A stretch of DNA of 32,000 nucleotides from Sphingobium bisphenolivorans (GTDB lineage: Bacteria > Pseudomonadota > Alphaproteobacteria > Sphingomonadales > Sphingomonadaceae), in contig NZ_ASTG01000006.1 of NCBI RefSeq assembly GCF_000412635.1, forward strand, positions 3,254 through 35,253, in the 5' to 3' direction. The position numbers and the translations under genes are program-made. Under the pieces are notes generated by a model. The model did no database searches and was not told the origin of the DNA. It saw nothing but the letters and a program-made list of their open reading frames with translations. Positions 334-31,696 of this stretch are shown here, one piece after another. Position 1 is the first letter of the stretch, and each line of letters starts with the position of its first letter.

Positions 334-346
334 GTTCCCCCTTTCG

Positions 347-5488: not shown

Positions 5489-5543
5489 GGAGCATTCTCC
5501 TTTAAGACAAGTCGTGCATGAATCGGGATTTGGAGAGGTTTAG

Positions 5544-5873
5544 ATGCTCGTTGCCGCACCCCTCATTTTGATGCTGGCCGCTGCTCCGCAGGGTGCCGAC
5601 GCGGTCGGCGCGGGCCGCAAGGCCTATTCGGAATGCTTGTCGAAGCAGATTCAGCCTGCGCTCGACAAGAAGCTGACGCTCGCCGACTTCCAGTCCGCAC
5701 TGAAGGAAAAGTGCGGCGCGCAGGAAACAGCCTTCCGCACCGCCATCGTCAACGACGACAAGTCCAGCAAGATGTCCGATGCGGACGCACAATCGGACGC
5801 GGACGAACAGGTTTCGGAATATAAGGACAAGATCGTCGGCGAGTTCGAGGATTATTCCAAGCCCGGCGGCTGA
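5544..5873 (+). CDS. small secreted protein (signal peptide, 2 Cys, Lys/Asp-rich), opposite strand inside the GTA cluster
   Basis: GGAGAGG SD 5 nt before the ATG. Signal peptide MLVAAPLILMLAAAPQGADA. High GC3 in this frame. The overlapping minus ORF 5502..5894 looks like a shadow. Confidence 0.65.
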   Translation: MLVAAPLILMLAAAPQGADAVGAGRKAYSECLSKQIQPALDKKLTLADFQSALKEKCGAQETAFRTAIVNDDKSSKMSDADAQSDADEQVSEYKDKIVGEFEDYSKPGG

Positions 5874-6063
5874 CCGCGCGCTCCGCATCCCCACTCAGCG
5901 TCATGCTGAACTTGTTTCACCATCCATCCATCGCCCCGAGCGATAGCCTGTGGAGGCGCGGTGGATGCTGAAGCGAATTCCTCGCAACATTATGCGTCGT
6001 GCCTCAGTCTGAACTGACCTGCAGCGTGCAGAAAAGGTTCGGCCGCGGTTGAGACAGATCGCG

Positions 6064-6459
6064 TCAGCCCCGCACCACCCGCAGCCGATAATCCGCCACG
6101 CCCTGCCAGCCATCCCGCGTTCCGGTCCGCGCCACACGCGAGCGCACCAGCCGCGCGCTGATGACCCGCCACTCGGCCCCCGCGCCGACATCGCGAACCA
6201 CCAGATCGATCAGCGCCAGCAGCGCTCCCAGCCGCTCCGGCCGCTCCCCGACATCGTACAGCTGGATCGCCAGCGTCAGTTCGCGCCCATCAACATCCTT
6301 CGCACCCCAGTCGTTGCCCAGGCAGTCGCCCACCACCGCATAGGGCTCGCTCGCCCGCCCCGGCCTGCCATCGAACAGGCCATTGAGGCCGCTCATCAGC
6401 GCGCTGTCCGCCCGCAAAGCCTCGATCAGGGCCGCTCGCACCGCCACCTCAGCGCTCAT
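6064..6459 (-). CDS. GTA g8-like tail terminator protein (DUF3168-type)
   Basis: 131 aa, MSAEVAVRAALIEALRADSALMSGLNGLFDG. ATGA overlap at 6456-6459. Confidence 0.8.
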   Translation of the reverse strand: MSAEVAVRAALIEALRADSALMSGLNGLFDGRPGRASEPYAVVGDCLGNDWGAKDVDGRELTLAIQLYDVGERPERLGALLALIDLVVRDVGAGAEWRVISARLVRSRVARTGTRDGWQGVADYRLRVVRG

Positions 6460-6662
6460 CCCCGTCCCCTTCCCGCCTCACGCAGCGCCAAATCGCTGAG
6501 CCACCGCCGCCTCAGCCCCGGCCCGCGCAGCCGCACCAGTTCACCTTCGATGCCGACATCCTCGACGCCGGCCGCGCGCACCGCCGCCGCGATTTCACGG
6601 CGCCGCTTCTCCGCCCCGGATTCCATCAGCGCCTCCACCAGCGCCTGCAGCCGCGCCCTCAT
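6456..6662 (-). CDS. 68-aa hypothetical protein at the g7 (head-closure) position
   Basis: Tail of track ORF 6456..7049. ATG at 6662 forms an ATGA overlap with the g6 stop (6659) and an ATGA overlap with the g8 start. Sequence MRARLQALVEALMESGAEKRRREIAAAV...; no recognisable family. Confidence 0.5.
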   Translation of the reverse strand: MRARLQALVEALMESGAEKRRREIAAAVRAAGVEDVGIEGELVRLRGPGLRRRWLSDLALREAGRGRG

Positions 6663-7138
6663 GTCAGCCGCATCCGCCGCCAGGGCCGCCACAGCGCGCT
6701 CACGACAGCAGGCGGCGTCGCCACCTGCCCGTCCCGTGCTCCGAAATGCTCCGCCGCCAGCCGCACTATGCCCTGCCGGATGGCATCGGGCAGCCCTTCG
6801 GCATCCTGCGCCATGCCTGCATGATAGCGCACGGTGGCCATGCCCACATCTGGACGTACCCGTACCCAGCCGTCCCCCGCCGCATCGATGTCGATCGCAT
6901 AGGCATCCGCCGCCAGCGCGCTCCCCTGCGCCTCCACGCCCAGGATAGCCACGACGGGCCGCCCCGACAGCCTCTGCCATGTTCCGTCCGCACCCGCCGT
7001 CTCGCTGGCCTCGCGCACGATCAGCCATTGTCCGATGAACTGTTCGCAAAGCCCCGTGGCGCTCGCCAGCAGCCGCTCCAGCACGCCATCCTCATCATCC
7101 GACCCGATCCGCAACCAGGCCTTAAGCTCCACCAGCAC
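6659..7138 (-). CDS. GTA g6-like head-tail connector/adaptor (phage gp6-like)
   Basis: 159 aa, MLVELKAWLRIGSDDEDGVLERLLASATGLCEQFIG, a typical gp6-like N-terminus. GTG start after the GGGGAGGG SD. Confidence 0.8.
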   Translation of the reverse strand: MLVELKAWLRIGSDDEDGVLERLLASATGLCEQFIGQWLIVREASETAGADGTWQRLSGRPVVAILGVEAQGSALAADAYAIDIDAAGDGWVRVRPDVGMATVRYHAGMAQDAEGLPDAIRQGIVRLAAEHFGARDGQVATPPAVVSALWRPWRRMRLT

Positions 7139-7262
7139 GCGCCGCCCTCCCCTTGAAAAAGGGGGACGCCCTACGGACGCCCCCAGCTTCCTTCTCCCTC
7201 CCGGAGAAGGATACGCAGCCTTGCCAGCTCTGCTGGCTAGGCGAAGTTGGATGAGGCCGACG

Positions 7263-8375
7263 TCAGGACGCTGCGAACTTCATCAGCTTGATCGCCTCCG
7301 AATTGGCGACCGCGCCGCCGATCCGCTTGACCGCATAGAAATGCACGAACGGCTTGTTGCTGAACGGATCGCGGAGGATGCTCGTCTCGCTGCGCTCTGA
7401 GACGACATAGCCCGCCTTGAAGTTACCAAAGGCGATCGAGAGCGACCCCGCCGCCAGATCGGGCATGTCCTCGGCCTCGATCACCGGATAGCCGAGCAGC
7501 GTCGCCGGCTGCTCTGCGGCCAGCGAAGGCTGCCAGATGAATGCGCCGTCGGTCGTCTTCATCTTGCGGATGACCGCCAGCGTCGCCGAATTCATCACGA
7601 AGCACGCCCCCTGCCGGTAGGGGGCCCGCAGGCTCTGCACCAGGTCGATCAGCTTGTCCGGACCCGCCGCCGTGAACGCACCCGAAGCCCCCGACGCCAC
7701 ATATTGCAGCGACCCGAATGCGCGCACGCTGTCCGCCTCGTTGGTCGTCGTATAGGTCAGGAAGCCCTTGGGCTTGTTCGTTCCATTGCCGTTCACGAAC
7801 GCCGCACCCTCTGCCGCCGCGAACTCGCGCGCAATCTCGCCCGCCAGCCAGCTCTCGACATCGAACTCAGCGTCGTCCAGCATCGCCTGGCTCGCCGCCG
7901 GATTGGCGTAGAGCTCGCCATAGGGCGGCACGATCTCGTTGAAGCTCGGCGTCGCCGTCTCCGTCCGTGCACCCGTCTCGCTCGCCCAGCCCGACACGAT
8001 GCCGCCCGACGTCACCAGCTTGCGATAGCCCGCCGATCCCGTGCGCACCACATTGGCGATGCTCCTGATCGGCGAGATGCTTTTCAGCGTCGCGTCGATG
8101 ATCTGGTCGATCTCGCGGGGCACCGCATAGCCGCCTGCCGTGCCGGACGCCCCCGAAAAGCTCTTCAGCTCCACCCCCGCCTCAAGCCCCTGCCGCAGAT
8201 AGCGTTCGACAAAGGCAGCGTGCCGCGGATCGGCGGCCCCGCCCTTCACCCCGTCCAGCGCCGGCCGCTGCTGCGCCAGCAGGCTCCCCTTCAGCGCGGC
8301 GACCTCACCCTCCAGCTCCGCGATGCGCTCACCCCGCACCACCGCGTCAAAGCTTGCTTCCAACTGGTCCGTCAT
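7263..8375 (-). CDS. GTA g5-like HK97-family major capsid protein
   Basis: 370 aa with an N-terminal coiled segment followed by an HK97-like body (GGYAVPREIDQII, FVMNSATLAVIRK). GGGAG SD. Confidence 0.9.
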   Translation of the reverse strand: MTDQLEASFDAVVRGERIAELEGEVAALKGSLLAQQRPALDGVKGGAADPRHAAFVERYLRQGLEAGVELKSFSGASGTAGGYAVPREIDQIIDATLKSISPIRSIANVVRTGSAGYRKLVTSGGIVSGWASETGARTETATPSFNEIVPPYGELYANPAASQAMLDDAEFDVESWLAGEIAREFAAAEGAAFVNGNGTNKPKGFLTYTTTNEADSVRAFGSLQYVASGASGAFTAAGPDKLIDLVQSLRAPYRQGACFVMNSATLAVIRKMKTTDGAFIWQPSLAAEQPATLLGYPVIEAEDMPDLAAGSLSIAFGNFKAGYVVSERSETSILRDPFSNKPFVHFYAVKRIGGAVANSEAIKLMKFAAS

Positions 8376-8389
8376 CCACTACTCCCACG

Positions 8390-8417
8390 AAAAAGGGCGG
8401 CCCGAACCGGACCGCCC
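8390..8417 (-). terminator. intrinsic-terminator-like hairpin + U5 between the protease and capsid genes
   Basis: Minus-strand RNA GGGCGGUCC-GGUUC-GGGCCGCCC (9 bp including one G-U) followed by UUUUU. It lies 29 nt after the protease stop and ends 14 nt before the capsid ATG. Confidence 0.55.
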
Positions 8418-8446
8418 GCACAGAAACCTCTTGAGCGCCCAAGCGC

Positions 8447-8842
8447 CTATTCCACCGCGATCACCCGCGCCAGGGGCTGCATCGGGTGCGTCACCACGCT
8501 CACCTCCACCACCTCCAGGTCCAGCAGTTCGCGCGGCCCATGCCCCCGCGCAGCCCGCACCCGATAGCCGAACGAGAGCCCGTCCACCGCCTTCTCCCGC
8601 AGCGCCCGCGCCGCCTCCCGCCCCGCCGCCGTTCGCGCCGACACCCGCCCGATCACCCGCAGGCCGCGCGCATCCTCCTCGATCCGCTCGACCGTGCCGA
8701 TCGCCTCCCCCGGCCGATGCTGCCACAGCAGCGGCACCCCCGCCGCCGCTCCCGCAAAGGCGCCCGCCCGCACCACGTCGCCACCGCGATCGACCCGGTC
8801 GAACACCGCCGCATAGCCGGCGAAGCGCAGATCCCCGCTCAC
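8447..8842 (-). CDS. GTA g4-like HK97-family prohead protease
   Basis: 131 aa, MSGDLRFAGYAAVFDRVDRGGDVV...LLWQH...DGLSFGY (His/Ser contexts). GTGA overlap at 8839-8842. Confidence 0.85.
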   Translation of the reverse strand: MSGDLRFAGYAAVFDRVDRGGDVVRAGAFAGAAAGVPLLWQHRPGEAIGTVERIEEDARGLRVIGRVSARTAAGREAARALREKAVDGLSFGYRVRAARGHGPRELLDLEVVEVSVVTHPMQPLARVIAVE

Positions 8843-9159
8843 GCCCGCACCAGCCCCAGCAGCCCCAGCTTCACCGCCATGCCCAGCAGCAGCAGCGCCA
8901 TCACGATCCGCACGGCCCAGGCGACGACAGCGCCCCGCGCCGCCTTCTTGGCGTCACGCCAGGCGCCCAGCAGCTCGCGCAATTCCCGCACGTCGCCTTC
9001 AGCGCTCCGGTCGGCCAGCCCCAGCCGCTCCAGCGCCCGCCCGGCGCCCAGCTCGCTCGCCTCCTCGACCAGCGCCCGGATCATCAGCATGTCGCACCCC
9101 ACCGGCTGCGCTTCCGCCTGAGCCACCAGCCGGGCCAGCATCTCCCCATCATATTTCAT
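8839..9159 (-). CDS. small C-terminally membrane-anchored protein at the g3.5 position
   Basis: Inner part of track ORF 8839..9303. ATG at 9159 forms an ATGA overlap with the portal stop (9156). MKYDGEMLARLVAQAEAQ... ends in the hydrophobic helix AVVAWAVRIVMALLLLGMAVKLGLLGLV. Confidence 0.6.
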   Translation of the reverse strand: MKYDGEMLARLVAQAEAQPVGCDMLMIRALVEEASELGAGRALERLGLADRSAEGDVRELRELLGAWRDAKKAARGAVVAWAVRIVMALLLLGMAVKLGLLGLVRA

Positions 9160-10295
9160 CGTGCCGCTCCCATCCCCAGCATCGCCCGCTTCTCTTCCCC
9201 GCTCAGGAAGTCCGCCGCCGCCACCCTGTCCCACAGCGCCCCGCGCTCCTCGGCCAGCGCCGGCACGGCATCCAGGTCGGCGCGCAGACAAAGCTCCGGC
9301 CACCAGCCTTGCAGCCCCTGCGCCAGCCCGCCGAAAATCTTGCCCAGCAGCGGCAGGATCGTCTGCCGCCAGAGCGCCCGGTTGGCCTCGCGATAATTGG
9401 CATAGGCATTGTCGCCCGGCAGCCCCATCAGCATCGGCGGCACCCCAAAGGCCAATGCGATCTCCCGCGCCGCCGCCGCCTTCAGCCCCACGAAATCCAT
9501 CTCGGCCGGCGTCAGGCTCATCGCCTTCCAGCTGAGCCCCCCTTCCAGCAGCATCGGCCGCCCTGCATTGGCCGCGCCGGAAAAGGCGACCTCCATCTCC
9601 CGCTTCACGCGCTCGAACTGTTCCGGGCTCATCACCGACCCGTCGCCCGGCTCATAGACCATCGCGCCCGAAGGCCGCGCGGCATTGTCGAGCAGCGCCT
9701 TGTTCCACACCGTCGCGGCATTGTGGATCGCCACCGCGCCCGCAGCCGCGCCGATGCATCCCAAGCCATAATGATCGTCCAGCGGATGCAGCGCCTTCAA
9801 ATGGATGATGCTCGTCCGTCCGGCGCTATCCTGGGGCGAGAGCCGCGTCACGCTATCCCCGACACGATAGAGATAGGCAGCCGGCCACCCCCGCCCGTCC
9901 GCCTCGACGCTCACCCGCTCGGGCCGCAGCGCGTATAGCTCAGCCGGTAGTCCGTCCGCCCCCAGCAGCATCTGCACATAGCCGTTGCCATGCAGCAGCA
10001 GATGGCTCGCCAGCGTCTCGACCAACGGCTGCCCCGCCGAACAATGGGTCAGCAGCGCGGCGATCTTCCTTCGCTCCCGCTCTTCCACGCCGGCGACCGT
10101 CAGGGCGGTCCCGCTCGCGCCCTCCGCCACCAGCCGCATCGCCCGCTGCGCCACCGGATTGCCCAGCACCGCCGCGCGCACCTGCGCCTCATAGGATGCG
10201 GGCCATTCGCCCAGCGCGACGCCGCCCGATCCCCAGGCGCGCGCCAGCACCGGCCGCGCGCCCCCGCGCGCCGCTTTCGTCCCGAAAAATTTCAT
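9156..10295 (-). CDS. GTA g3-like portal protein
   Basis: 379 aa with phage portal (HK97-type) character, e.g. LLLHGNGYVQML and FGVPPMLMGLPGDNAYANYREANRALWRQTILP. Confidence 0.9.
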   Translation of the reverse strand: MKFFGTKAARGGARPVLARAWGSGGVALGEWPASYEAQVRAAVLGNPVAQRAMRLVAEGASGTALTVAGVEERERRKIAALLTHCSAGQPLVETLASHLLLHGNGYVQMLLGADGLPAELYALRPERVSVEADGRGWPAAYLYRVGDSVTRLSPQDSAGRTSIIHLKALHPLDDHYGLGCIGAAAGAVAIHNAATVWNKALLDNAARPSGAMVYEPGDGSVMSPEQFERVKREMEVAFSGAANAGRPMLLEGGLSWKAMSLTPAEMDFVGLKAAAAREIALAFGVPPMLMGLPGDNAYANYREANRALWRQTILPLLGKIFGGLAQGLQGWWPELCLRADLDAVPALAEERGALWDRVAAADFLSGEEKRAMLGMGAAR

Positions 10296-10309
10296 GCAAA
10301 CCCCGCCAC

Positions 10310-10337
10310 AAAAAATCCTCCCCGCTCGGGGGAGGAT
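10310..10337 (-). terminator. canonical intrinsic terminator downstream of the glycine-zipper gene, 14 nt upstream of the portal ATG
   Basis: Minus-strand RNA AUCCUCCCC-CGAGC-GGGGAGGAU (9-bp perfect stem) followed by UUUUU. Confidence 0.65.
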
Positions 10338-10392
10338 AGTGAAGCCCGGCGACGATCAGCCGCCTAACGAAAGATGGAAAGGGGCGACGCCC

Positions 10393-10734
10393 TCAAGGAT
10401 TGCGGGCCAATACCCGGTCGCAAGCCGCGTTCGTGCCCTCGCTCTTGCCGATCACCCGGCCCGCGACCGCTCCCGCCGCACCAGCCAGCAGCGATTCACC
10501 CAGGCTCCCGCCCGCCAGCGCCCCCACGCCAGCCCCGCCGGCCGCGCCGATCACAGTGCCGCGGTCGCGCCCTTTCTTCCCCTGAAGCAGGCAATAGCGC
10601 ACCTCGTCCCTATCCCGTGGCGCCGCCCGCGCCACCCGCGCGCGCTCCTTGCCGTTGAGCGAAGCGGCGAGAGCCGGGGTTGTCGCCACAGCCATGCCAG
10701 CCAGAACCATCACAAATTTAGCGCCCATTTTCAT
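10393..10734 (-). CDS. secreted glycine-zipper protein (Gly-zipper/17-kDa-antigen-like) inserted between terL and portal
   Basis: Signal peptide MKMGAKFVMVLAGMAVATTPALA. Gly-zipper GAAGGAGVGALAGGSLG..AGAAGAVAG. AGGAGG SD. Confidence 0.75.
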   Translation of the reverse strand: MKMGAKFVMVLAGMAVATTPALAASLNGKERARVARAAPRDRDEVRYCLLQGKKGRDRGTVIGAAGGAGVGALAGGSLGESLLAGAAGAVAGRVIGKSEGTNAACDRVLARNP

Positions 10735-10764
10735 ATCTCAAGCTCCTCCTAGATCGCCTGAATA

Positions 10765-10790
10765 TACGCCAGGAGCCGCAGCGCAGTTCC
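10765..10790 (-). promoter_or_regulatory. ECF (EcfG/general-stress-type) promoter-like element GGAAC-N17-CGTA upstream of the glycine-zipper gene
   Basis: Minus strand reads GGAAC tgcgctgcggctcctgg CGTAtatt, about 30 nt upstream of the ATG at 10734. The alphaproteobacterial EcfG consensus is GGAAC-N16-17-CGTT, so there is one mismatch. Confidence 0.4.
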
Positions 10791-10900
10791 GGCACCCCGA
10801 CACTCCCCCTGTTCCTGCGATCCGAAGAAGGCCGTCGGCCAACGCAGGAACCCGGCTCGAACGGCGGGGCGGGGCTCCTGTCCGCAGGAGCACGACATCC

Positions 10901-12223
10901 CTAAATTATCCGCACCCGCGCGTCCGACCACCGCCCCAGCATCAACTCGGTCAACGCCCAGACCAGCGCATCCGCCCGGTCCGGCGACCGCCCCGGCCCG
11001 ACATAGCCGCCGCCCATCACCATGCCGCACATCTGGTCTTCCAGCTGCCAGAGGGCGCCGCGATGCGCCACGCGCCCTGCCTCGTAGAGCGCCGCCACCG
11101 GCTCCGCCCGCGCCACCTTGCCCCGGCTCGCATGGACCAGCCGCACCGGCAAAGCGGCCTCCGCCGCCCGCAGCACGCTCTCGACCATCGCGCCGCCATT
11201 ATTGGCTTCAGCGACAACCCGGTCGGCACCATGCGCGACTGCCGCCGCTGCGACCGCGCGCGCCCAGCCCTCCGGCCTCATGCCCTCGACAGTAGCGTCG
11301 GCAATGACATAGGCGCGCCCGTCACCGCCCAGGCCAGCAACGACAATCCCGCAGGCATCGCCATCGGCGGAAGCGGGCGGGTCCACCGCCACCACTACCC
11401 GCGACAGCGTGCCCCCTTGCGGCACATGCGGCACCCGGCATCGCTCCAGCAGATCGCGGCTCCACAGCGCGCCCTGCACATCCTCGATCAGTTCACCGTG
11501 CAGCTCCTGCCGCCCGAGCCGCGTGCCGCCATAGCTGCGCTCCATCGCGGCGACGAAGCCGTCCGCCAGATGCGCCGCATTGTCCGCCGTCCGCCCCCGC
11601 GTCACCACGACATCCGCGCCGTCCCGCGCCACCAGCCCGCACACCAGCGGCACCGGACGCGGCGTGGTCGTCGCCAGCACACGCGGCCGCGCGCCCAGCC
11701 GCATGCCCATCATCAGATTGTCCCAGCACATCTCGCCCGCCGGCCATTTCGCGATTTCGTCGGCCCAGCCATGGCTGAACTGGGGCCCGCGCAGGCTCTC
11801 CGGCTCCGCCGCGCCGAACAGCGACGCGACCGCGCCATTGGGCCACAGCAGCCTGCGCAGAGCGGGCGAGAAGACCGGCCGGTTCCACCAGGGTGCCACC
11901 GCCAGGATTCCCGACGGTCCCTCCACCATCACGGCGCGCGTCTCGCCCAGCGTCGCCCCAACGATAGCGATCCGCGCCGATGGGTCATTTTCCGCGATCG
12001 TCCTGACCCATTCGGCGCCCGCCCGTGTCTTGCCGAAGCCGCGCCCGGCCATCATCAGCCAGATGGTCCAGTCACCCCCCGGCGCCAGTTGTTCCGGTCG
12101 CGCCAGCCACCGCCAGTCATGCGCCAGCGCCTCGGCCGCCGCGCCGTTCAGGCCGGCCAGCACCCGCTCGCGCTCCGCTTCGGGCAAGCGCGCCAGCCGC
12201 TCGAAATCCGAAAGGCTCCCCAT
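10901..12223 (-). CDS. GTA g2-like terminase large subunit
   Basis: Track ORF 10901..12247. Walker A GRGFGKT. The preferred start is ATG at 12223 (MGSLSDFERLARL), preceded by AAGGAG; ATG at 12247 is an alternative. Confidence 0.9.
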   Translation of the reverse strand: MGSLSDFERLARLPEAERERVLAGLNGAAAEALAHDWRWLARPEQLAPGGDWTIWLMMAGRGFGKTRAGAEWVRTIAENDPSARIAIVGATLGETRAVMVEGPSGILAVAPWWNRPVFSPALRRLLWPNGAVASLFGAAEPESLRGPQFSHGWADEIAKWPAGEMCWDNLMMGMRLGARPRVLATTTPRPVPLVCGLVARDGADVVVTRGRTADNAAHLADGFVAAMERSYGGTRLGRQELHGELIEDVQGALWSRDLLERCRVPHVPQGGTLSRVVVAVDPPASADGDACGIVVAGLGGDGRAYVIADATVEGMRPEGWARAVAAAAVAHGADRVVAEANNGGAMVESVLRAAEAALPVRLVHASRGKVARAEPVAALYEAGRVAHRGALWQLEDQMCGMVMGGGYVGPGRSPDRADALVWALTELMLGRWSDARVRII

Positions 12224-12310
12224 GCACCCCTGCTCCTTTCGCCACATTCTGCCTTATTTTCGGGCTCCGGCCCTTTTCGCGGCGCATGCCCCGAACCTAT
12301 ATGCCTCGCC

Positions 12311-24843: not shown

Positions 24844-24870
24844 AAACGGCGCCTATCGGGCGCCGTTTTT
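24844..24870. terminator. bidirectional intrinsic terminator between gltA and the convergent kinase-like gene
   Basis: AAA-CGGCGCC-tatcg-GGCGCCG-TTTTT. The stem is flanked by an A-run and a T-run. It lies 22 nt after the gltA stop and 5 nt from the minus-strand stop at 24875. Confidence 0.8.
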
Positions 24871-24874
24871 CGTT

Positions 24875-26254
24875 TCAGCCGAGGGCGGGCAGCGAAAGGG
24901 TGAAGCGGGCGCCCCCACCCGGAGCCTCATCGACATGGATATCGCCACCCATCGCGCGAGCCAGGCGGCGGGAGATGAACAGCCCCAGGCCGCTGCCTCC
25001 CGGATCGTTGCGGCCGAGACGCTCGAACTTCGCAAACACACGTTCGCGGCTGTCGGCCGGCACCCCCTCGCCCTGGTCCAGCACCGCGATCCAGACCCGC
25101 TCTCGCTCGCGCCCGGTTTCCACGCGCACCTGAGAACCTTCGGGAGCATAGCGGATCGCGTTGCCGATCAGGTTCATCAGGATTTGCAAGGCTCGCCGGA
25201 ACTCCCCAACCGCTGGCGCGACGATGTCGGCGGCAGGCGTGATGACGGCAATATCCCGCTGCTGTGCCTTCACGACCAGCAAACCGGCAGCGCGCCGCCC
25301 GAGATCGGCAAGGTCGATCTCTTCGGCAATCACCGTGAAGTCGGGCCTGTCGATCGCCTGAAGATCCGCCAGATCGTCGATCAGCGCCATCAGATGCCGT
25401 CCTGCCGTTGCTATGTCGCCGGCATAACCCGCATAGTCGGGCCTCAACTCGCCATGGCCCTGCGCGCCGAGGAGATCGGCATTGGCGATGATCCGGCCCA
25501 GCGGTTGCCGCAGCGACCGGTCAAGCCTTTTGCTGAACTCGGCGGGATAGAGGACCGTCGGCTTGGGCAGCACCAGCGGCGCGGTCACGGCCCGCTCCAA
25601 CGGCAAGGCCGTGCCCCTATAGCCTAGCAGCTGCCCGCTGAGGTCAAACATGGGATAACCCGACAGGCGGTAGCTTTCCCCCTGCTTTCCGACCAGGCCC
25701 GCAAGCTGATCGTGGAAGGCGCGCCGCTGCGCAAAGCCGCGCAGGATGGCCAGATCGCCCTCGGCGTCGGGGTGCAATTCGAAATAGCTGGTAAAACGGC
25801 TGCCCGGCACCGGCGGCGACGCAGGCAGGGCACCTTCGCTGCCTGCCCCTTCCATCACCATCTGGAATCGAAGCTGGGTATCGATCTGCCACAGCCAGCC
25901 ATCCGCCAGCGACGCGATATCCGCTTCCCGCCGGGCAAGATCAAGGGTCGCGGTGACCGCCGTGCGCTCATGCCAGTCGATGACAGAGAGTTGCACAAGC
26001 TCATCATCCGCCCGCGCCCTTACCCACATCTCGATATCGCCGCTATCGCACGCCGCGACCACTGGGCGGGCGACAGGAACATGCAGATGCGCAACCAGTC
26101 TCGCTATGGCGGCCAGCTGCGGGATCGCAAGCCGTTCGCCCAAGTCGCCGCCCGCCTCCCGCTGCAAGGAAAGCAGCGGTTCGTCGGCGCTGAGCAGCCG
26201 CCCATCAAGTGCGACGGTCGCCCGAACGATGGCGGGAGGCGCCAGCATGTGCAT
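24875..26254 (-). CDS. histidine-kinase-like protein with a degenerate H-box (Arg at the phospho-acceptor position) and an apparently intact HATPase_c domain
   Basis: Inner 459 codons of track ORF 24875..26524. ATG at 26254 overlaps the upstream stop (TGATG). DHp-like FSKRLDRSLRQPLGRIIANADLL versus canonical SHELRTPL. N-box LMNLIGNAIRYAP, G1 DQGEGVP, G2 GGSGLGLFISRRLARAMGG. Confidence 0.7.
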   Translation of the reverse strand: MHMLAPPAIVRATVALDGRLLSADEPLLSLQREAGGDLGERLAIPQLAAIARLVAHLHVPVARPVVAACDSGDIEMWVRARADDELVQLSVIDWHERTAVTATLDLARREADIASLADGWLWQIDTQLRFQMVMEGAGSEGALPASPPVPGSRFTSYFELHPDAEGDLAILRGFAQRRAFHDQLAGLVGKQGESYRLSGYPMFDLSGQLLGYRGTALPLERAVTAPLVLPKPTVLYPAEFSKRLDRSLRQPLGRIIANADLLGAQGHGELRPDYAGYAGDIATAGRHLMALIDDLADLQAIDRPDFTVIAEEIDLADLGRRAAGLLVVKAQQRDIAVITPAADIVAPAVGEFRRALQILMNLIGNAIRYAPEGSQVRVETGRERERVWIAVLDQGEGVPADSRERVFAKFERLGRNDPGGSGLGLFISRRLARAMGGDIHVDEAPGGGARFTLSLPALG

Positions 26255-27348
26255 CAAACCATGGTCCGTCGCAGATGCTCCAGCTTGACCCGAAGCGCCG
26301 CTGGAGCGCGCAAGTTGCTGACCATCGCGTCGGCCTGGGCCTCGCTTATCTCCTGGTAGCGCGCCGCCTCTCCCACTATCCTCCCGTCGGAGAGGGTGGT
26401 ACGTACCGGCCGCAGCGCCACCAGCAGCCGCCGGTAATCGGCGTCCGATCCGCCCAGCGCGCGGCACAGCGCCGCCACCTGCGCGACGGAGCCCATCACC
26501 AGTATGTCGGCGACCTGCATGCACTCCATCCGCAGCCGCCGGCCCGCCAGTGCCGCGAACAGCAAAAAGCGGCGCTGCGCCAGGGCAGCGCCGATCAGAT
26601 CGGGCGCATCGGCCCTCTCCCCCAGCCTCTGCACGAGGCGGTCCGCCGCCGCGATCGGGCCAGCCTGCTCGTCATGCCGCCCCAGCATGGCCCAGCCCGC
26701 TTCTTCGAAGAGGGACAGCATCGCCTGCGCCTCCGCCGGATGGTCCTGCTGAGCGACAGCTGCCAGGCAAGCAGCTGCCGTCCAGACCAGTTCCGTATAA
26801 TGGGCGGCAGGAAGGTCGGGGTGCATGGCCTGGTGCTCACCTCCAGCCATCAGCCAGCGCGCCTCCGCCAGAGCCATGGCGGCCAACGCTTCATCCAGCG
26901 CCTGATCCCCGGCGGCGAACAAGGCCTCCGCCTCCGTTTCCCCCGGATGATCTTCTGGGCGGCCGGTCTGGCGCAGCATCAGGCTCACACCCGCGCGCAT
27001 CTGCATATGGGCCAGCAGAGCAGGCGAAAGAAGGGTCGGCTGTGCACATAACGCCGGCCAGCACAGCGGCTCTGGCCGGGCTGCCAGCAAAGCCGCACCC
27101 GCGGCGCTCGCCTCCAGGGAAAGCCGCAACCCGGTTTCGATGGCGGTGACGCATCCGCCAAGATGCCGCCGAGTCTCGACCAGCAAAACATCATTCCGCT
27201 CGCGCCCTTCCTCCGGAAAGAAGAACGCGAGATCAATGGCATGATCGATCGGCACGGCGGACATGCCGGGCCTGACTCGCGCCATCGGCCAGCTGTCCGC
27301 CATGCTCGGTCCGTTCAAGGGCGAAAAGGCGCTCATTGCGGCGACCAT
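26254..27348 (-). CDS. 364-aa Ala/Leu-rich helical hypothetical protein
   Basis: Long ORF, translationally coupled to the kinase-like gene. No motif I can name with confidence. Confidence 0.6.
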   Translation of the reverse strand: MVAAMSAFSPLNGPSMADSWPMARVRPGMSAVPIDHAIDLAFFFPEEGRERNDVLLVETRRHLGGCVTAIETGLRLSLEASAAGAALLAARPEPLCWPALCAQPTLLSPALLAHMQMRAGVSLMLRQTGRPEDHPGETEAEALFAAGDQALDEALAAMALAEARWLMAGGEHQAMHPDLPAAHYTELVWTAAACLAAVAQQDHPAEAQAMLSLFEEAGWAMLGRHDEQAGPIAAADRLVQRLGERADAPDLIGAALAQRRFLLFAALAGRRLRMECMQVADILVMGSVAQVAALCRALGGSDADYRRLLVALRPVRTTLSDGRIVGEAARYQEISEAQADAMVSNLRAPAALRVKLEHLRRTMV

Positions 27349-27388
27349 AGCCGCACGTCGTTAAAATGCACTAAACCCTAAGCAGAAT

Positions 27389-28561
27389 TCACGGCTGATC
27401 GCGGCGCAGCAAGATCATCGCTCCGACCGAAGCGATGGCGCAGAAGGTCGCGACACTCGTCATGGGCGTGAGCGCGCCTGTCATGGCCGCCAGCAGCAGC
27501 AGGATCAGCGCGCTGGCTGGCGTGAAAATCATCCATGGCCTGATGCCGCCCGTCCTATGCCGCCGATCCGCCACTTGCACGATCGCGAGCAGCAGGGCGA
27601 GGTAGATTGTCCCCATCGTATCGCCCGACAAGGCGATGCCGAGCAGCGCGACAGCAGGCGTGACGAAGGCCGTCCAGCCCATGGGCGGTGAGCGGAGCGC
27701 CAGTTCGTCCAAACGATCGGCTATTTCCGCCAGCAGCAGCGCCAGCAACAACAGGCAAAATCCCGCGCCAACCCAGAGCAGTTCGATCGGCACCAGCCCG
27801 ATCGCCCCCAGCACCATGGCCGCGATCCGCATTTGCGGCGCCGGCACCTGCATGCGCATCAGCGCCGGACCGACGAGCCGGGCCAGCGGAGCCAGCAGAT
27901 AATGTTCGGCGCCGCCCCGCGACTGCTGGAGCCGGGGGCCGCTCGACAGCACCGCCTGCGCGGCGACATCAGCCTGTTCCTGCCCATCGACGAGAGCAAC
28001 CCGCCCCTCCAGCAGATCATCCTGCGGCACCGTGACGCGTCGCGCACCGGCCTGAACCGCGCTACGCACCAGAGTCAGCGACAGGTCCCAGTCGCCGATC
28101 ATATCGAGCGTGTTGAACAGCAGGTCGGGGCTGATCCGCGCCAGGCCGGCCCAGCGCTGCCCGGCGTCGATCCGTTCGAACGGCGCGCTCGCCCGGCTGT
28201 CGTCGGTTACCAGCAGCGCATTTCCTTGCCGCTCCGCCATCGCCTCGAAATGACCCTGCGCCACGATCGCGCCATCTGCGACCAGCAGCGTATCGGCGTC
28301 GCGCGGAGCATCGCGAACCATGGACACCATGTCGCGGATCAGCGCGACCGCGATACCGTCCGCCGAAAGACGATCGACGGCCTGCGACAAAGCAGGCGTA
28401 ATCACGCTGACGACGATCATGATCCGGTCCGCACCAGCCCGCGCAGCTTGGCGTGCCTGATATTCCACCAGTGTCTGACCTGCGAAGTGCAGGCTGCCAC
28501 GAAGCGGTGCAGCCGGATCACCGGACGTCCGGCTCGCGCTGAGAATGGCTGCAAATGTCAT
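27389..28561 (-). CDS. membrane protein: N-terminal nucleotidyltransferase-like fold + C-terminal CDP-alcohol-phosphatidyltransferase-like TM domain, both with degenerate motifs
   Basis: Inner 390 codons of track ORF 27389..28735 (ATG 28561, MTFAAILSASRTSG... versus canonical LAGGxGxR). The C-terminal half is multi-TM, with VPAPQMRIAAMVLG (compare PNxxT) and ADRLDELALR (compare DxxDGxxAR). Confidence 0.5.
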   Translation of the reverse strand: MTFAAILSASRTSGDPAAPLRGSLHFAGQTLVEYQARQAARAGADRIMIVVSVITPALSQAVDRLSADGIAVALIRDMVSMVRDAPRDADTLLVADGAIVAQGHFEAMAERQGNALLVTDDSRASAPFERIDAGQRWAGLARISPDLLFNTLDMIGDWDLSLTLVRSAVQAGARRVTVPQDDLLEGRVALVDGQEQADVAAQAVLSSGPRLQQSRGGAEHYLLAPLARLVGPALMRMQVPAPQMRIAAMVLGAIGLVPIELLWVGAGFCLLLLALLLAEIADRLDELALRSPPMGWTAFVTPAVALLGIALSGDTMGTIYLALLLAIVQVADRRHRTGGIRPWMIFTPASALILLLLAAMTGALTPMTSVATFCAIASVGAMILLRRDQP

Positions 28562-28604
28562 GCCGTTGAGAAACCGACCCGATCGTTGTTCGACCCACCT
28601 TTTT

Positions 28605-28633
28605 GCAAGCCGGGCGCCATCACGCAAGCCGGG
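28605..28633. repeat. perfect 10-bp direct repeat GCAAGCCGGG x2 (19-bp period) in the Hpt-like / transferase-like spacer
   Basis: gcaagccggg cgccatcac gcaagccggg read directly at 28605-28614 and 28624-28633. Confidence 0.6.
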
Positions 28634-28640
28634 TGGCGCT

Positions 28641-28943
28641 TCACCCCTCGGAAAGCTCATCCAGCATGGCGCGCAACCGGCGCAGCACGCGCGGATCACC
28701 GGGTGCCGAATCGGCTGCCTCGTCCGCCATCGCAATCAGGCTGCTCATGCCGAAACTCGCCGCCAGCCCCTTCAGCCGCCATGCGGCCAGTTCCCAGTTC
28801 GCGTCGCAGCGTGCCCGGCGTAGCAGATCGAATTGCCGCTCGGCGCTTTCCATGAAGGCGACGCGCAGGTCGGCAATCAGCGTACGGTCGTCGCCCACCG
28901 CAGCGGCTAGGGCAGCATTCAGGGCGCCTGGATCGTAGGACAT
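28641..28943 (-). CDS. Hpt-like domain protein lacking any histidine
   Basis: 100 aa. AAWRLKGLAASFGMSSL matches the Hpt signature aHxLKGsaaslG, but Trp55 occupies the His position. The whole protein contains no His. Confidence 0.55.
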   Translation of the reverse strand: MSYDPGALNAALAAAVGDDRTLIADLRVAFMESAERQFDLLRRARCDANWELAAWRLKGLAASFGMSSLIAMADEAADSAPGDPRVLRRLRAMLDELSEG

Positions 28944-29014
28944 AGGGCGAACGCTATCTGGCTTGCGTTAAGTTTTGGTAACAGGCCATTTTCGTTCGTC
29001 GAAAAGCTGCTAGG

Positions 29015-31696
29015 ATGCGCGGCATGAATGGGGGCAGCACAATCGTCGAATTTTGGCGAGACAATAAGGCAGCGGCCGATAACGCCGCGCAGGCCGAGGA
29101 TATCCTGCTTTTGGATCAGGCTGCACCTGATCTGGAGCAAGAGTCACTCGCCGCTGATGAGGCCGAAGGCTCCGTCCGCGGCGCGCAGATCGCGTTCCTA
29201 ATAGCCGGGCTGGTTTGGCTCGTCTTCGCCGCTTGGGCAACCATATCGTCGGGCCAGTGGCAGGCTGGTCCTGCCGGGTGGCCGGGACTGGTTGCGACCA
29301 TTCTCATCCCCCTGACGCTTCTTGGTGTTTGCTATCTTCTGCTCCTGCGCAACAGCCGCACCGAAGCGCGGCGCTATATCGACACGGCCCGAACGCTCCG
29401 CGCAGAGGCGGAGTTGCTTGAGCTTCGCCTTGGCCGGATCGCTCGTCAGCTCGAAACGGCGCGGCAGACGATGCACGACCAGGCCGAATTGCTCGACAGC
29501 TATGGCGCCGCCGCAAGCAGCAATATGGAGGCTTCGGCGGAGTTGATCGCCGGCCGGGCGAACAGCACAGCGGAACGCGCCGAAGCAGCGGAACAGGCCG
29601 CGCTCGCCCTTGTCCAGCGGATGGAAACGCTCATCGGCTCCATTCCAGAACTGGAGGATCGCGCGACTCGCATGGCCGCGCGGATCATCGACAATGGCCA
29701 CGCGCTGTCCGAGCGGATCGACACACTGGAAGCCCGCCTGCATGCTCTCGGCGAACTGTCCGACGACGCTCGTACGCGCACACTTTCGGCGACCAAGAGC
29801 CTGTCCAGCCAGCTTACCCAGCTTCAGGAGGCGACACGGTCTGCCACGCAGGAGGTCAATGGCCTTGCCGATTTGGCCGCCAACCGGATCGACGTCACCA
29901 CCCAGAATGCCCGCCTGGCGCTGGAGGATAGCCGTCAGGATATCGAGCAGCAGGCAAGTTCGCTCGAATGTCTGGTCGCCCGCATCCGCGACAATGTGTC
30001 CGACACCACGCGTTCGATGGCGGCGGCGCTGACGCGGGAACTGGACAATGCCGAAGCGGACGTGCGGCAGCGGCTCGAAGCGTCACTCGCCAGTGCGCGG
30101 GAAAGCATGGCTGCGACGGATGCTGACCTCTCTGCGCAGGCGGTATCGCTGCGCACGCTCATCGAAGAAGCACGTTCGGGCATCGTCGGTACCAGCCAGA
30201 CGGCACTTGCCACCCTGTCCCGCGACGCACAGGCGATCGAGGCCGAGTTGCACGATCGGATCGCCGCTGCCGTGGCGCAAGCGCGTGAAAGCCTGAGCTT
30301 CACGGAGGCCGGAATCACGCGTCAGACCGAAGCGCTCGACGCACTGATCGCACGCTCCCGCACGAGCATTGAGGCAATCGGCAATGATTCTGTCGCTCAT
30401 CTGGCGGATCATGTCGCGGAAGTTGAAAGCCGCCTGCATCAGATCAACGATCTGGTCGAGGGTCAACGGACGCTCGTTTCAGGGCTTCAGACCAACCTCA
30501 ACGAAGCGGTAGACGCCGCGCAATCGCGCTTCACGGCGATGGAAGACGCCGCCCTCGCCCGCAACGAGCGGCTGACCGAGGCATTATCTCGCCTGACGGC
30601 TGAAACCCAGCGCATCGACAGCGCGCTCGCGCAAGGCGGTATCACGGCCGAAAAGCTGATCGGCAGTGCGGAAACCCTGCTGGTCGCGCTCGATTCGAGT
30701 GTGCGCGAGCTGGACGAAACCTTCCCCGCGGCGCTGGAGCGCTTTAACGGGCGCATCGAAAGCAGCCGGACTTTGCTCGACAGTGCAGCGCCCGAGATCG
30801 AACGGCTGGAGGCCATTTCCGAGGCACTCGTCGGACGCACGCAGGAGGCGGAGGAACTGCTCCGCGGTCAGGGCCGTCGCCTCACCGAATGGTTGGAAAG
30901 CACGCAGAGCGGCGTCGATGCCAATCGCGAGCTGGTCGAAAAGCTACGCACCGCGCTCGACAATGCGCATCAGGACGCGACCCGCATTACCGAGGGCGCC
31001 GGGCCGCTGCTGGTCACCGCGCTGCTCCGCGTCAAGGATACGGCGGATCAAGCAGCCGAACGCGCCCGCCAAGCCCTGAGCCGGGCCATTCCCGATGCCG
31101 CCCAGTCGTTGGCTGACGCCAGTGAGGCCGCCATGCAGCGGGCGATCGACGAAAAGGTCACCGCGCAGATCGAGATGGTCGCGCAAGTCGCGGAGGAAGC
31201 GGTCAAGGCCGCGCACCAGGCGTCCGATCGCCTGACCCGGCAGTTGCTGACGATCGCCGACACGAGCGCCGGGTTGGAGGCGCGGATCGAGGAAGCGCAG
31301 CGGGCAGCCGAAGACCGCGACCGGGAACATTTCGCCCGCCGCTCCGCGCTTATCATCGAATCGCTCAACAGCACCGCCATCGACGTCTCCAAGATTCTGT
31401 CGAACGACGTCACCGACTCTGCCTGGTCAGCCTATCTCAAGGGTGATCGCGGGGTGTTCACCCGCCGCGCCGTCAAGCTGCTCGACGCTGGTGAATCCCG
31501 CGAGATCGCGCTTCATTACGACAGCGATCCTGAATTTCAGGAGCATGTGAACCGCTACATCCATGATTTCGAATCGATGCTGCGGATCATCCTGTCGGCG
31601 CGAGACGGCAATGCGCTGGGCGTAGCGCTGCTCTCGTCTGACATGGGCAAGCTCTATGTCGCGCTGGCACAGGCGATCGAACGGCTGAGGCAGTAG
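29015..31696 (+). CDS. 893-aa two-TM, long coiled-coil membrane protein with 62-aa tandem repeats and a globular C-terminal domain
   Basis: TM helices at about aa 57-77 and 90-111, followed by about 650 aa of Ala/Glu/Arg/Leu-rich helix. Units at aa 310-371 and 372-433 align position by position (…AxAxARES[ML]). Confidence 0.8.
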   Translation: MRGMNGGSTIVEFWRDNKAAADNAAQAEDILLLDQAAPDLEQESLAADEAEGSVRGAQIAFLIAGLVWLVFAAWATISSGQWQAGPAGWPGLVATILIPLTLLGVCYLLLLRNSRTEARRYIDTARTLRAEAELLELRLGRIARQLETARQTMHDQAELLDSYGAAASSNMEASAELIAGRANSTAERAEAAEQAALALVQRMETLIGSIPELEDRATRMAARIIDNGHALSERIDTLEARLHALGELSDDARTRTLSATKSLSSQLTQLQEATRSATQEVNGLADLAANRIDVTTQNARLALEDSRQDIEQQASSLECLVARIRDNVSDTTRSMAAALTRELDNAEADVRQRLEASLASARESMAATDADLSAQAVSLRTLIEEARSGIVGTSQTALATLSRDAQAIEAELHDRIAAAVAQARESLSFTEAGITRQTEALDALIARSRTSIEAIGNDSVAHLADHVAEVESRLHQINDLVEGQRTLVSGLQTNLNEAVDAAQSRFTAMEDAALARNERLTEALSRLTAETQRIDSALAQGGITAEKLIGSAETLLVALDSSVRELDETFPAALERFNGRIESSRTLLDSAAPEIERLEAISEALVGRTQEAEELLRGQGRRLTEWLESTQSGVDANRELVEKLRTALDNAHQDATRITEGAGPLLVTALLRVKDTADQAAERARQALSRAIPDAAQSLADASEAAMQRAIDEKVTAQIEMVAQVAEEAVKAAHQASDRLTRQLLTIADTSAGLEARIEEAQRAAEDRDREHFARRSALIIESLNSTAIDVSKILSNDVTDSAWSAYLKGDRGVFTRRAVKLLDAGESREIALHYDSDPEFQEHVNRYIHDFESMLRIILSARDGNALGVALLSSDMGKLYVALAQAIERLRQ

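Follow-up and report, generated by a model that had tools for sequence, protein, structure and literature searches.

A phosphorelay-derived operon of Sphingomonadales that probably signals without His-to-Asp phosphotransfer

How might an operon signal when its products trace back to phosphorelay proteins and lipid-headgroup enzymes but no longer possess the acceptor or catalytic residues of these ancestors? This question is raised by four tightly packed genes of Sphingobium bisphenolivorans, which lie at 24875-28943 on the minus strand of the window (the whole 32,000-nt stretch of DNA analysed here) in the order Hpt-like, membrane protein, DUF2336 and kinase-like. The original prediction, made from the sequence alone, had these coordinates and this gene order right. 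It had also seen the TGATG stop/start overlap at which the kinase-like gene begins, and the ATG within it does have one base in common with the DUF2336 stop codon; the intergenic gaps, in gene order, are 79, 40 and -1 nt. Our overall best explanation, held with moderate confidence, is a phosphorelay-derived operon that signals by binding, with its ATP site kept and without His phosphotransfer.

The kinase-like protein (24875..26254, minus strand, 459 aa) is publicly annotated as an ordinary sensor histidine kinase. An AF2 model (pLDDT 72.7) gives it a PAS-PAS-DHp-CA architecture, with PAS-like domains at residues 10-96 and 120-218, DHp helices at 237-264 and 272-301, and a CA/ATP-binding domain at 311-457. 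Foldseek matches include WalK, NifL, HK853, DivL and RetS, with the NifL-NifA complex (9qq6) second best, and since NifL, DivL and RetS are kinase-like proteins that signal by binding, this resemblance was counted in favour of a non-phosphotransfer reading. HATPase_c is matched at 91 bits, accompanied by a weak HATPase_c_2 match (anti-sigma-factor kinase type), and the HisKA alignment (24.5 bits) begins only at profile position 12 and therefore leaves out the H-box. Alignment to solved kinases places R246 (LDRSLRQPL) at the phospho-acceptor position, where it pairs with the His of SHEIRTPL in 7z8n, H260 of HK853 and the Tyr of DivL, so that the Arg predicted at the H-box is borne out by structure-anchored alignments. 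LDRSLR[QRK]PL is kept in all 120 Sphingobium homologues, and DHp helix 1 (LRxPLxRIIANA[ED]) is strongly conserved. Among 116 diverse relatives, the acceptor column holds Pro in 34, Arg in 22, Glu in 11, Ser in 10, Ala in 9, Thr in 8, Asp in 7 and His in 2; these alignments show that the missing His is characteristic of the family and not a matter of chance. The acidic residue at H+1 and the Thr/Asn at H+4, which make up the kinase and phosphatase motifs beside the His, are lost as well. However, the predicted degeneracy of every catalytic hallmark was too strong a claim. In relatives down to 34% identity, conservation reaches 97-100% (about 99%) in the N, G1, F and G2 boxes (N361/N365, D393xG395xG397, F407, G420xG422LG424). 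The CA domain is not degenerate and therefore retains nucleotide binding, and possibly some phosphoryl chemistry. Relatives of this protein occur in at least 592 species-level genomes.

The Hpt-like protein (28641..28943, minus strand, 100 aa) was recognized by Pfam and by its motif, and lacks the phospho-accepting His as predicted. Where Hpt proteins carry H-x-x-K-G it has A-W55-R-L-K-G, within the longer stretch AAW55RLKGLAASFG. In 68 relatives the His column contains Trp (59), Leu (4), Tyr (2), Ala (2) and His (1), and the acceptor states recorded overall are W, L, Y, A and M, with His in one relative. Around it R56, L57, G59, L60, S63, F64 and G65 never vary, and K58 is kept as Lys in 67 of the 68. 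Such freely varying acceptor columns (P/R/E/S/A/T/D in the kinase-like family, W/L/Y/A/M here) beside near-invariant neighbours have the look of an unconstrained former active site. The Hpt assignment depends on the motif and on Pfam scores that barely reach or exceed the threshold, namely 24.6 bits, exactly the cut-off, for this protein and 28.9 and 26.5 bits for relatives; the Sphingomonas parapaucimobilis orthologue is named 'Hpt domain-containing protein' by PGAP. The family profile found no Hpt structure in the PDB. The sole member with His, from locus L079, aligns over its full length and His on His with PDB 2ooc, titled 'histidine phosphotransferase', although the E-value of 0.15 is weak. 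In none of the profile or structure-anchored alignments does a His of the Hpt-like or the kinase-like protein fall on the acceptor site.

The membrane protein (27389..28561, minus strand) is 390 aa long from its true start, MTFAAILSAS; the listed ORF reaches further upstream, and the NCBI call is shorter, at 343 aa. Its AF2 model has an overall pLDDT of 60, with about 90 in the membrane part and low confidence in the N-terminal half. Foldseek against the PDB gave IPCT-DIPPS (4mnd, E 1.6e-4) as the best match, followed by AF2299 and PIPS/PgsA1. The model suggests a cytosolic nucleotidyltransferase-like domain joined to a multi-helix membrane domain of CDP-alcohol-phosphotransferase fold. IPCT-DIPPS and AF2299 of Archaeoglobus (4mnd, 4o6n) are bifunctional, combining a cytidylyltransferase with a CDP-alcohol phosphotransferase, and share the cytosolic domain followed by a six-helix membrane domain. 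However, identity to them is only 11-15%, the protein has neither the G-loop GGxGxR nor the PK lysine, and the CDP-alcohol signature motif, D(x)2DG(x)2AR...G(x)3D(x)3D, is conserved neither within Sphingobium nor family-wide. Judged by these motifs, the catalytic residues of both domains are missing, and the degeneracy foreseen for this protein was confirmed. Pfam NTP_transf_3 matched only at E=0.014, the homologues have no Pfam domain and are named 'hypothetical', and profile searches against the PDB returned no match. Its conserved residues are cytosolic: E33, Q35, R37, D96-G97, E129-R130, W137-A138-G139, D157, D159, R166 and Q170. The helical DUF2336 protein (26254..27348, minus strand, 364 aa; PF10098 at 41.1 bits against a cut-off of 34.6) is the fastest-evolving member of the operon. 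Its orthologues score 48.8 bits in Sphingomonas and 29 bits in Rhizorhapis, and similarity is no longer detectable in the positional counterparts of Novosphingobium and Sphingorhabdus.

The same arrangement of genes is found in Sphingobium, Rhizorhapis, Sphingomonas, Stakelama, Novosphingobium and Sphingorhabdus, with gltA adjoining every time, and the layout is the same in Novosphingobium, Sphingorhabdus and S. parapaucimobilis. All five genes (the operon and a divergent coiled-coil gene) are present in 58 of the 69 informative loci, and the genes are thus co-conserved in several genera, as the original prediction required. The ORFs are intact at 34-76% identity across genera, which was counted as a sign of purifying selection. 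This is a real, vertically inherited Sphingomonadales operon, paired with the divergent membrane coiled-coil gene. Some lineages (L042/L043, L068/L072 and Sphingomicrobium L084) do without the Hpt-like protein, the DUF2336 protein or both, so neither is obligatory for the kinase-like protein. Pfam, NCBIfam and PADLOC gave only generic domain matches and no curated family, and full-text literature searches found no description of the gene set, in agreement with the prediction that it was not a described system. With His-less phosphorelay relatives recurring across Sphingomonadales, the operon probably represents a signalling module that has not been described before and in which no phosphate passes from His to Asp. 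The co-evolved pseudo-phosphorelay proposed at the outset is therefore partly supported: family-wide His loss and co-conservation stand in its favour, whereas the CA domain is intact, the genes are not strictly inseparable, and action through protein-protein interaction or nucleotide binding, as in DivL, is a proposed mode. From the His-less acceptor positions, the co-conservation and the lack of a prior description, a phosphorelay-derived module without His phosphotransfer is the best-supported reading.

A fully conserved ATP site would be equally compatible with a true kinase that uses a non-canonical acceptor, and this is the rival that we take most seriously, although we consider it unlikely. 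The CA domain would then phosphorylate a residue outside DHp helix 1, either on the Hpt-like protein in trans, as in a split CheA in which the dimerisation domain is His-less and the Hpt carries the His, or on a Ser/Thr/Tyr of a partner, like the GHKL protein kinases PDK/BCKDK and SpoIIAB/RsbW. The conserved N, G1, F and G2 boxes and the HATPase_c_2 match favour such activity, as do the Tyr at the Hpt site in two lineages and the invariant S63. Locus L079, with the Hpt-motif His and a Leu at the kinase H-box, fits an ancestral CheA-like split, and CheA (P1 Hpt, P3 His-less dimerisation, P4 CA) likewise combines an Hpt unit, a His-less DHp-like bundle and an intact CA domain. However, the Hpt of CheA carries its His in the same polypeptide, whereas the Hpt His is lost here in almost all lineages; with W, L, A or M in the acceptor column nearly everywhere, trans-phosphorylation at that site cannot be the mechanism in general. 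The invariance of S63 needs no special explanation, since this residue is part of the usual Hpt motif KG(S/A)xxxxG, and no evidence points to a Ser/Thr substrate. Another acceptor that could be proposed is H287 on DHp helix 2 (Y..YA.DI..AGRHL), which is 97-100% conserved, with His found in 113 of the 116 family members and at all 80 genome loci. In the AF2 model the two sites sit at about equal height in the bundle, H287 lying 15 residues into helix 2 and position 246 having 18 residues of helix 1 still to follow. However, the HisKA consensus usually has a polar residue such as Arg at this column. HK853 also has a His at exactly the aligned helix-2 position (QSNHLENLL) and is phosphorylated on helix-1 H260 instead, and we know of no HisKA-type kinase with a helix-2 acceptor, so a moved acceptor seems very improbable.

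It could also be argued that there is no functional unit, the genes being neighbours only through order-wide synteny (birA-coaX-rnj ... gltA-gltX-comEC-lexA) and each protein acting independently. The flanking housekeeping genes are indeed syntenic too, one or two genes are missing in some lineages, and evolutionary rates are unequal, with Hpt 39-54% identical between genera and DUF2336 undetectable. We nonetheless hold this to be improbable: a single strand carries all four genes, which are spaced by -1 to 79 nt and include a stop/start overlap, their order is constant over divergence down to 34% identity, and three of the four proteins either trace back to a signalling fold or have a link to the control of phosphorelays. 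In four of the loci without the upstream genes, a mobile element may account for the gap; at locus L056, a phage-type integrase lies directly upstream. Loss of acceptor residues or catalytic motifs in three of the four proteins might alternatively mark decaying remnants of a former phosphorelay with no present function. This is effectively refuted by conservation, with full-length intact ORFs in at least 592 species genomes, CA boxes 99% conserved, RLKG...SFG invariant save one K58R, and no frameshifts seen in the 85 loci examined.

By analogy with DivL, NifL and AHP6, the products most likely form an ATP-binding signalling complex that does not transfer phosphate. The DHp of the kinase-like protein would serve as a dimerisation interface and its two PAS-like domains would sense a cytoplasmic cue, with the CA domain binding ATP or ADP as a conformational switch and not as a phosphodonor. 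Output would be stoichiometric binding to partners. Candidates are the Hpt protein without its His, the DUF2336 protein, which would be translationally coupled to the kinase-like protein through TGATG, and the membrane protein, whose cytosolic domain would anchor the complex at the membrane. A genuine phosphorelay could also be tuned by the His-less Hpt if this engaged, as an adaptor or decoy, a receiver domain or DHp from another locus.

Several known systems share features with this module. DivL of Caulobacter crescentus is an alphaproteobacterial HisKA-type DHp-CA protein with the acceptor His replaced, a pseudo-histidine kinase that controls CckA by protein-protein contact and not by phosphotransfer, and its structure (4q20) is among the structural neighbours of the kinase-like protein. 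However, the DivL Tyr that aligns with R246 is fixed, whereas the site is unconstrained here (P/R/E/S/A...), and the kinase-like protein matches DivL (72 bits) no better than it does ordinary kinases (GacS, 85 bits). DivL has an N-terminal TM segment and several PAS domains, unlike the two PAS-like domains without a membrane anchor found here; the CA boxes here are fully conserved, and the genomic partners are different. The kinase-like protein is not a DivL orthologue, and the analogy is functional only. NifL (Azotobacter/Klebsiella; PAS-PAS-H-GHKL) shares the PAS domains, DHp-like helical domain and nucleotide-binding GHKL domain. It inhibits NifA by binding, without His autophosphorylation, nucleotide binding tuning the stoichiometric interaction. 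Nevertheless, its sequence kinship is no more than that of the generic kinase fold, and the locus, in another taxon and context, has no NifA-like partner. Arabidopsis AHP6, an Hpt fold that has lost its phospho-accepting His and kept the surrounding docking motif, is reportedly a competitive inhibitor of a phosphorelay; it is eukaryotic and of independent origin, whereas the Hpt-like gene here shares an operon with a His-less kinase gene. To our knowledge, there is no bacterial pseudo-Hpt family of this kind. Weak sequence links also lead to the Caulobacter ShkA-ShpA-TacA/SpmY pathway. ShkA (6qrj) is among the sequence matches of the kinase-like protein, and 2ooc, which we take to be ShpA, is the only solved structure matched by any Hpt-like family member. 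SpmY, a modulator of this phosphorelay, is reported to be a DUF2336 protein. PMC11519897 cites SpmY as a stimulator of phosphatase activity in the TacA pathway. However, ShkA and ShpA have their His and transfer phosphate, and ShkA, as a hybrid kinase, contains receiver domains, whereas the Sphingobium locus encodes none. The Caulobacter genes are not known to form one operon.

At its upstream end, the operon is separated from the coiled-coil gene (29015..31696, plus strand, 893 aa as listed, ~900 aa) by a divergent promoter region of 71 nt (28944..29014). Read on the minus strand, this contains an element, [GT][TA]AC-N6-TTAAC, at 28967-28982, in which AC and TTAA are invariant across 58 distinct upstream regions and whose distance to the Hpt ATG is fixed at 27-29 nt. 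No Shine-Dalgarno sequence was found upstream of that ATG. The membrane-anchored coiled-coil protein, linked to the operon by co-conservation, likely starts at the second ATG, at 29024 (MNGGS...). Its gene keeps the same divergent position in 63 of the 69 informative loci, and also in Novosphingobium, Sphingorhabdus, Sphingomicrobium and S. parapaucimobilis. Pfam, NCBIfam and PADLOC returned only coiled-coil noise for the protein, which has a conserved C-terminal domain, its last ~250 aa being 39-44% identical between genera. At the other end, a GC-rich hairpin (24844..24868, minus strand) lies where the kinase-like gene and gltA converge, within the 52 nt that separate their stop codons. A simple terminator scan did not report it, and its computed fold (10-bp stem, -19.8 kcal/mol, z=-1.8) is modest evidence that it is likely a bidirectional terminator closing the operon.

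The operon at 24875-28943 on the minus strand of the Sphingobium bisphenolivorans window is a conserved one in which both phospho-acceptor histidines and the catalytic residues flanking them have been lost, as have the enzyme motifs of its membrane protein. The ATP pocket is retained, as are the two surfaces by which true relay proteins recognize their partners. The coordinates, gene order and TGATG overlap of the original prediction all proved correct. The four genes encode an Hpt-like protein (28943-28641, 100 aa), a membrane protein (28561-27389, 390 aa, with its real start at MTFAAILSAS), a helical DUF2336 protein (27348-26254, 364 aa) and a kinase-like protein (26254-24875, 459 aa), whose ATG lies within TGATG and overlaps the stop of the gene before it. 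They are separated by gaps of 79, 40 and -1 nt, and scans for sigma-70 promoters and terminators inside the operon returned nothing above shuffled expectation. The 52 nt between the kinase-like gene and the converging gltA hold a 10-bp GC-rich hairpin. Neither the operon nor its immediate flanks encode a receiver domain. Novosphingobium (locus L081, 9538-10223) and Sphingomonas parapaucimobilis (locus L085, 7777-7986) have one or two additional small genes (69-142 aa, without Pfam domain) between the kinase-like gene and gltA; the window does not have them.

The kinase-like protein, which shares 100% identity with an S. bisphenolivorans entry at NCBI, matches HATPase_c at 91 bits and HisKA at 24.5 bits in Pfam, the latter match starting only at profile position 12, so that the H-box is left out. 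In alignments to solved kinases, R246 of LDRSLRQPL falls on the phospho-acceptor itself, namely the His of SHEIRTPL in GacS (7z8n), H260 of HK853 and the Tyr of DivL, which bears out the predicted Arg at the H-box. The motif LDRSLR[QRK]PL is kept in all 120 of the closest homologues (all Sphingobium, 61-100% identical). Searched exhaustively with HMMER, 1.84 billion cluster representatives yielded another 115 or so clusters of full-length relatives, 34-60% identical. When 116 sequences were aligned, the acceptor column held P34, R22, E11, S10, A9, T8 and D7 plus others, with His in only two sequences; among the genome loci it is found at 1 of 80. The features around the acceptor are likewise absent: H+1, normally acidic, is mostly Ala in the family alignment, and H+4, where a Thr or Asn is needed for phosphatase activity, is variable. 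DHp helix 1 (LRxPLxRIIANA[ED]) is strongly conserved, as are the N, G1, F and G2 boxes (N361/N365, D393xG395xG397, F407 and G420xG422LG424; 97-100%). The alignments therefore describe a protein that has lost helix-1 chemistry and kept helix-1 shape and the nucleotide pocket. The original prediction that every catalytic hallmark is degenerate holds for the H-box His but fails for the ATP-binding boxes of the kinase. In an AlphaFold2 model (pLDDT 72.7), two PAS-like domains are followed by a DHp hairpin (237-264 and 272-301) and then a CA domain; the structural neighbors of this model include WalK, NifL, phytochromes, HK853, DivL and RetS.

With 24.6 bits, the Hpt-like protein just reaches the gathering cut-off of Pfam Hpt (PF01627); two relatives have 28.9 and 26.5 bits, and the S. 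parapaucimobilis orthologue is named "Hpt domain-containing protein" by PGAP. Its motif, A-W55-R-L-K-G-L-A-A-S-F-G, has W55 where HxxKG has its His, and corresponds position for position to the G-H64-F-L-K-G-S-S-A-A-L-G of YPD1. Among 68 relatives the His column holds W59, L4, Y2, A2 and H1, with M in Novosphingobium, in agreement with the claim of an Hpt-like gene devoid of its acceptor His. There is no variation at R56, L57, G59, L60, S63, F64 and G65, and 67 of the 68 have Lys at position 58. The family profile found no Hpt in the PDB. The sole His-bearing lineage (locus L079) aligns full-length and His-on-His, weakly (E=0.15), to 2ooc, a 113-aa histidine phosphotransferase, which we take to be Caulobacter ShpA. 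This is thus an Hpt-derived family that has lost its His in nearly all lineages and kept the docking face.

The membrane protein had been described as nucleotidyltransferase/CDP-alcohol-transferase-like with a degenerate G-loop and DxxDGxxAR. Its homologues are all "hypothetical" and without Pfam domain, and its AlphaFold2 model is confident in the membrane half only. The top Foldseek matches of the model are IPCT-DIPPS (4mnd, E 1.6e-4), AF2299 and PIPS/PgsA1 enzymes, in support of the predicted architecture. There is no Pfam match to CDP-alcohol phosphatidyltransferase (PF01066), and nothing of D(x)2DG(x)2AR...G(x)3D(x)3D in transmembrane helices 2-3 is conserved across genera; within Sphingobium, only R283 and R333 of this signature are invariant and D282 and D332 nearly so. 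The match to NTP_transf_3 has E=0.014, its 16 bits falling short of the cut-off of 27, and neither the G-loop (GGxGxR), which here reads ILSASRTSGD, nor the catalytic Lys of NTP transferases is present. A search of the PDB with a profile was empty. We reject an active CDP-alcohol phosphotransferase or cytidylyltransferase because the motifs are absent family-wide and this profile search returned nothing. The conserved residues (E33, Q35, R37, D96-G97, E129-R130...W137-A138-G139, D157, D159, R166 and Q170) are cytosolic, which favors a ligand site or a surface for binding over lipid chemistry. At 343 aa, NCBI's protein for this gene (window 27389-28735) reaches 88% of the length of its homologues, which all have 388-390 aa, and the deposited start is probably too far downstream.

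The helical protein scores 41.1 against DUF2336 (PF10098; cut-off 34.6), and its counterpart at the Sphingomonas locus L069 scores 48.8. Positional counterparts in Novosphingobium, Sphingorhabdus and S. parapaucimobilis do not reach the threshold; this is the fastest-evolving member of the operon, and the same-position genes in Novosphingobium and Sphingorhabdus are unrecognizable. A tblastn search of plasmids with this protein gave no match. In Caulobacter, SpmY (CCNA_01280) is reported to belong to DUF2336 and to reduce the phosphorylation of TacA in the ShkA-ShpA-TacA relay. A tie between SpmY and the DUF2336 protein of the operon is a lead.

Divergently from the operon, across 71 nt, lies a plus-strand gene (29015-31696) for a membrane-anchored protein of 893 aa, which is co-conserved with the operon across genera. 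It has N-terminal membrane helices, a coiled coil of about 650 aa and a conserved C-terminal domain of about 250 aa, and matches no family in the domain libraries; its architecture is reminiscent of TipN, a pole marker of Caulobacter. Comparison with the Novosphingobium protein (MNGGP...) makes the second ATG, at 29024, the likely true start. The shared intergenic region carries a promoter element, [GT][TA]AC-N6-TTAAC (GTTAC-N6-TTAAC in the window; 28967-28982, minus strand), whose AC and TTAA never vary among 58 distinct orthologous regions and whose distance from the Hpt ATG is constant at 27-29 nt. No Shine-Dalgarno sequence precedes that ATG, a hint that the leader is very short or missing. 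The element is similar to a CtrA half-site, but its spacing is one base short of TTAA-N7-TTAAC, for which reason a CtrA box was rejected by eye; EcfG and sigma-54 readings, judged in the same way, did not fit either.

Linkage among the five genes is strong without being absolute. When one genome per species was scanned with an 8-sequence alignment of the kinase-like protein, at least 592 relatives were found, from which 80 loci were kept (80% Sphingobium, the rest Rhizorhapis, Sphingomonas, Stakelama and other Sphingomonadales); further genera were reached through contigs encoding homologous proteins and one match in a plasmid collection. Gene content was classified with iterated profiles at the 69 loci with enough upstream DNA. 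The coiled-coil, Hpt, membrane and DUF2336 genes all lie upstream of the kinase-like gene at 58 of these, and the phylogenetic co-occurrence expected of a co-evolved set was to this extent confirmed, but some lineages are without Hpt, DUF2336 or both. Four loci have the coiled-coil, Hpt and membrane genes upstream, with a third gene, unrecognizable, still in place at two of them; four have DUF2336 only, two have the membrane and DUF2336 genes, and one has the coiled-coil and membrane genes. At one Sphingobium locus with DUF2336 only (L056), a phage-type tyrosine integrase (5771-6784) lies directly upstream, suggesting that an inserted element split or replaced part of the cluster. Three other loci (L057, L059 and L067) share its gene pattern. 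The five-gene layout adjoining gltA also occurs in Novosphingobium capsulatum, Sphingorhabdus lutea and S. parapaucimobilis, and Sphingomicrobium has the coiled-coil, membrane and kinase-like genes only. The membrane and kinase-like proteins look like the core of the set. All named carriers of the kinase-like family are Sphingomonadales.

How might such proteins signal? We envisage a membrane-associated complex in which a dimer of the kinase-like protein would receive input through its PAS domains and use ATP/ADP binding as a switch. The loss of the His and the conserved DHp surface suggest that it signals by binding, and the His-less Hpt may serve as an adaptor or decoy toward a receiver domain or DHp encoded elsewhere. 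There are precedents in DivL, NifL and RetS for the kinase-like protein and in plant AHP6 for the His-less Hpt. Unlike DivL, in which Tyr replaces the acceptor His, the kinase-like protein has Arg, and the residue varies across the family; orthology to DivL was rejected on this ground and because the score against DivL is no higher than against generic kinases. The main rival to signaling by binding starts from the intact CA domain, which could still phosphorylate something, either CheA-like in trans, in the rare His-bearing lineages, or on a Ser, Thr or Tyr of a partner. We consider this unlikely. Relocation of the acceptor to H287 on DHp helix 2 is highly improbable: this residue (Y..YA.DI..AGRHL) is 97-100% conserved and, in the model and alignments, stands at about the height of position 246, but the helix-2 position of HK853 that aligns with it is also a His (QSNHLENLL) and is not used as an acceptor. 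H287 thus seems to be an ordinary feature of DHp domains, and we rejected relocation as the main reading. An anti-phage defense system was also rejected, as the four operon proteins matched no PADLOC defense-system model and the 893-aa protein gave coiled-coil noise only.

A more ambitious reading, which we regard as rather a long shot, takes all five genes as an order-specific polarity or cell-cycle signaling hub. The membrane-anchored coiled-coil protein of about 900 aa, with its TipN-like architecture, would be the landmark or scaffold, and would recruit the SpmY-like DUF2336 protein, the membrane tether and the pair of His-less kinase and His-less Hpt. The recruited set would then titrate or allosterically control a genuine phosphorelay elsewhere (e.g., CckA-ChpT-CtrA or a ShkA-ShpA-TacA-like relay), with the kinase-like protein standing in for the DivL of Caulobacterales and Rhizobiales. 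A cell-cycle regulator would act at the conserved ..AC-N6-TTAAC element of the shared promoter.

The locus belongs with the pseudo-components of two-component signaling, an already known class. There are few two-component pseudo-kinases like DivL, NifL and RetS, and every one of them has been informative on how a kinase fold signals without its chemistry; to our knowledge, a pseudo-Hpt of this sort is known only from plants (AHP6). What sets the locus apart is its breadth, with the His-less kinase family in at least 592 species genomes, an ATP site that is still fully conserved, and an operon that encodes a His-less kinase together with a His-less Hpt, alongside two more degenerate proteins. 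Searches of a full-text literature library turned up no description of the gene set, and curated libraries hold only generic domain matches. Public records name the kinase-like protein "sensor histidine kinase" or "HAMP domain-containing histidine kinase", treating it as an ordinary sensor kinase, so genome-based two-component counts and wiring diagrams of sphingomonads are wrong here. Should the module modulate a real phosphorelay, it would be a tractable model for how decoys or adaptors control phosphotransfer, and it might fill the place of polarity regulators that sphingomonads appear to lack.

Elsewhere, positions 1-12300 of the window carry a minus-strand cluster of head-tail genes resembling those of gene transfer agents or prophages. 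Among them are genes for the terminase large subunit (10901-12247), portal (9156-10295), an HK97-type capsid (7263-8375) and a 776-aa protein with NCTSP_N, TIM-barrel_NCTSP and DUF2460 domains (1554-3884). Inside the terminase gene, ARAGORN calls an 87-nt tRNA-Pro(cgg) at 11759-11845 with its anticodon at position 30; given this location and the lack of any Rfam family there at gathering score, the call is probably a false positive. The cluster has raised G+C (up to 0.72) and a strongly negative GC skew relative to the rest of the window, and its layout resembles the RcGTA-type clusters of Alphaproteobacteria.
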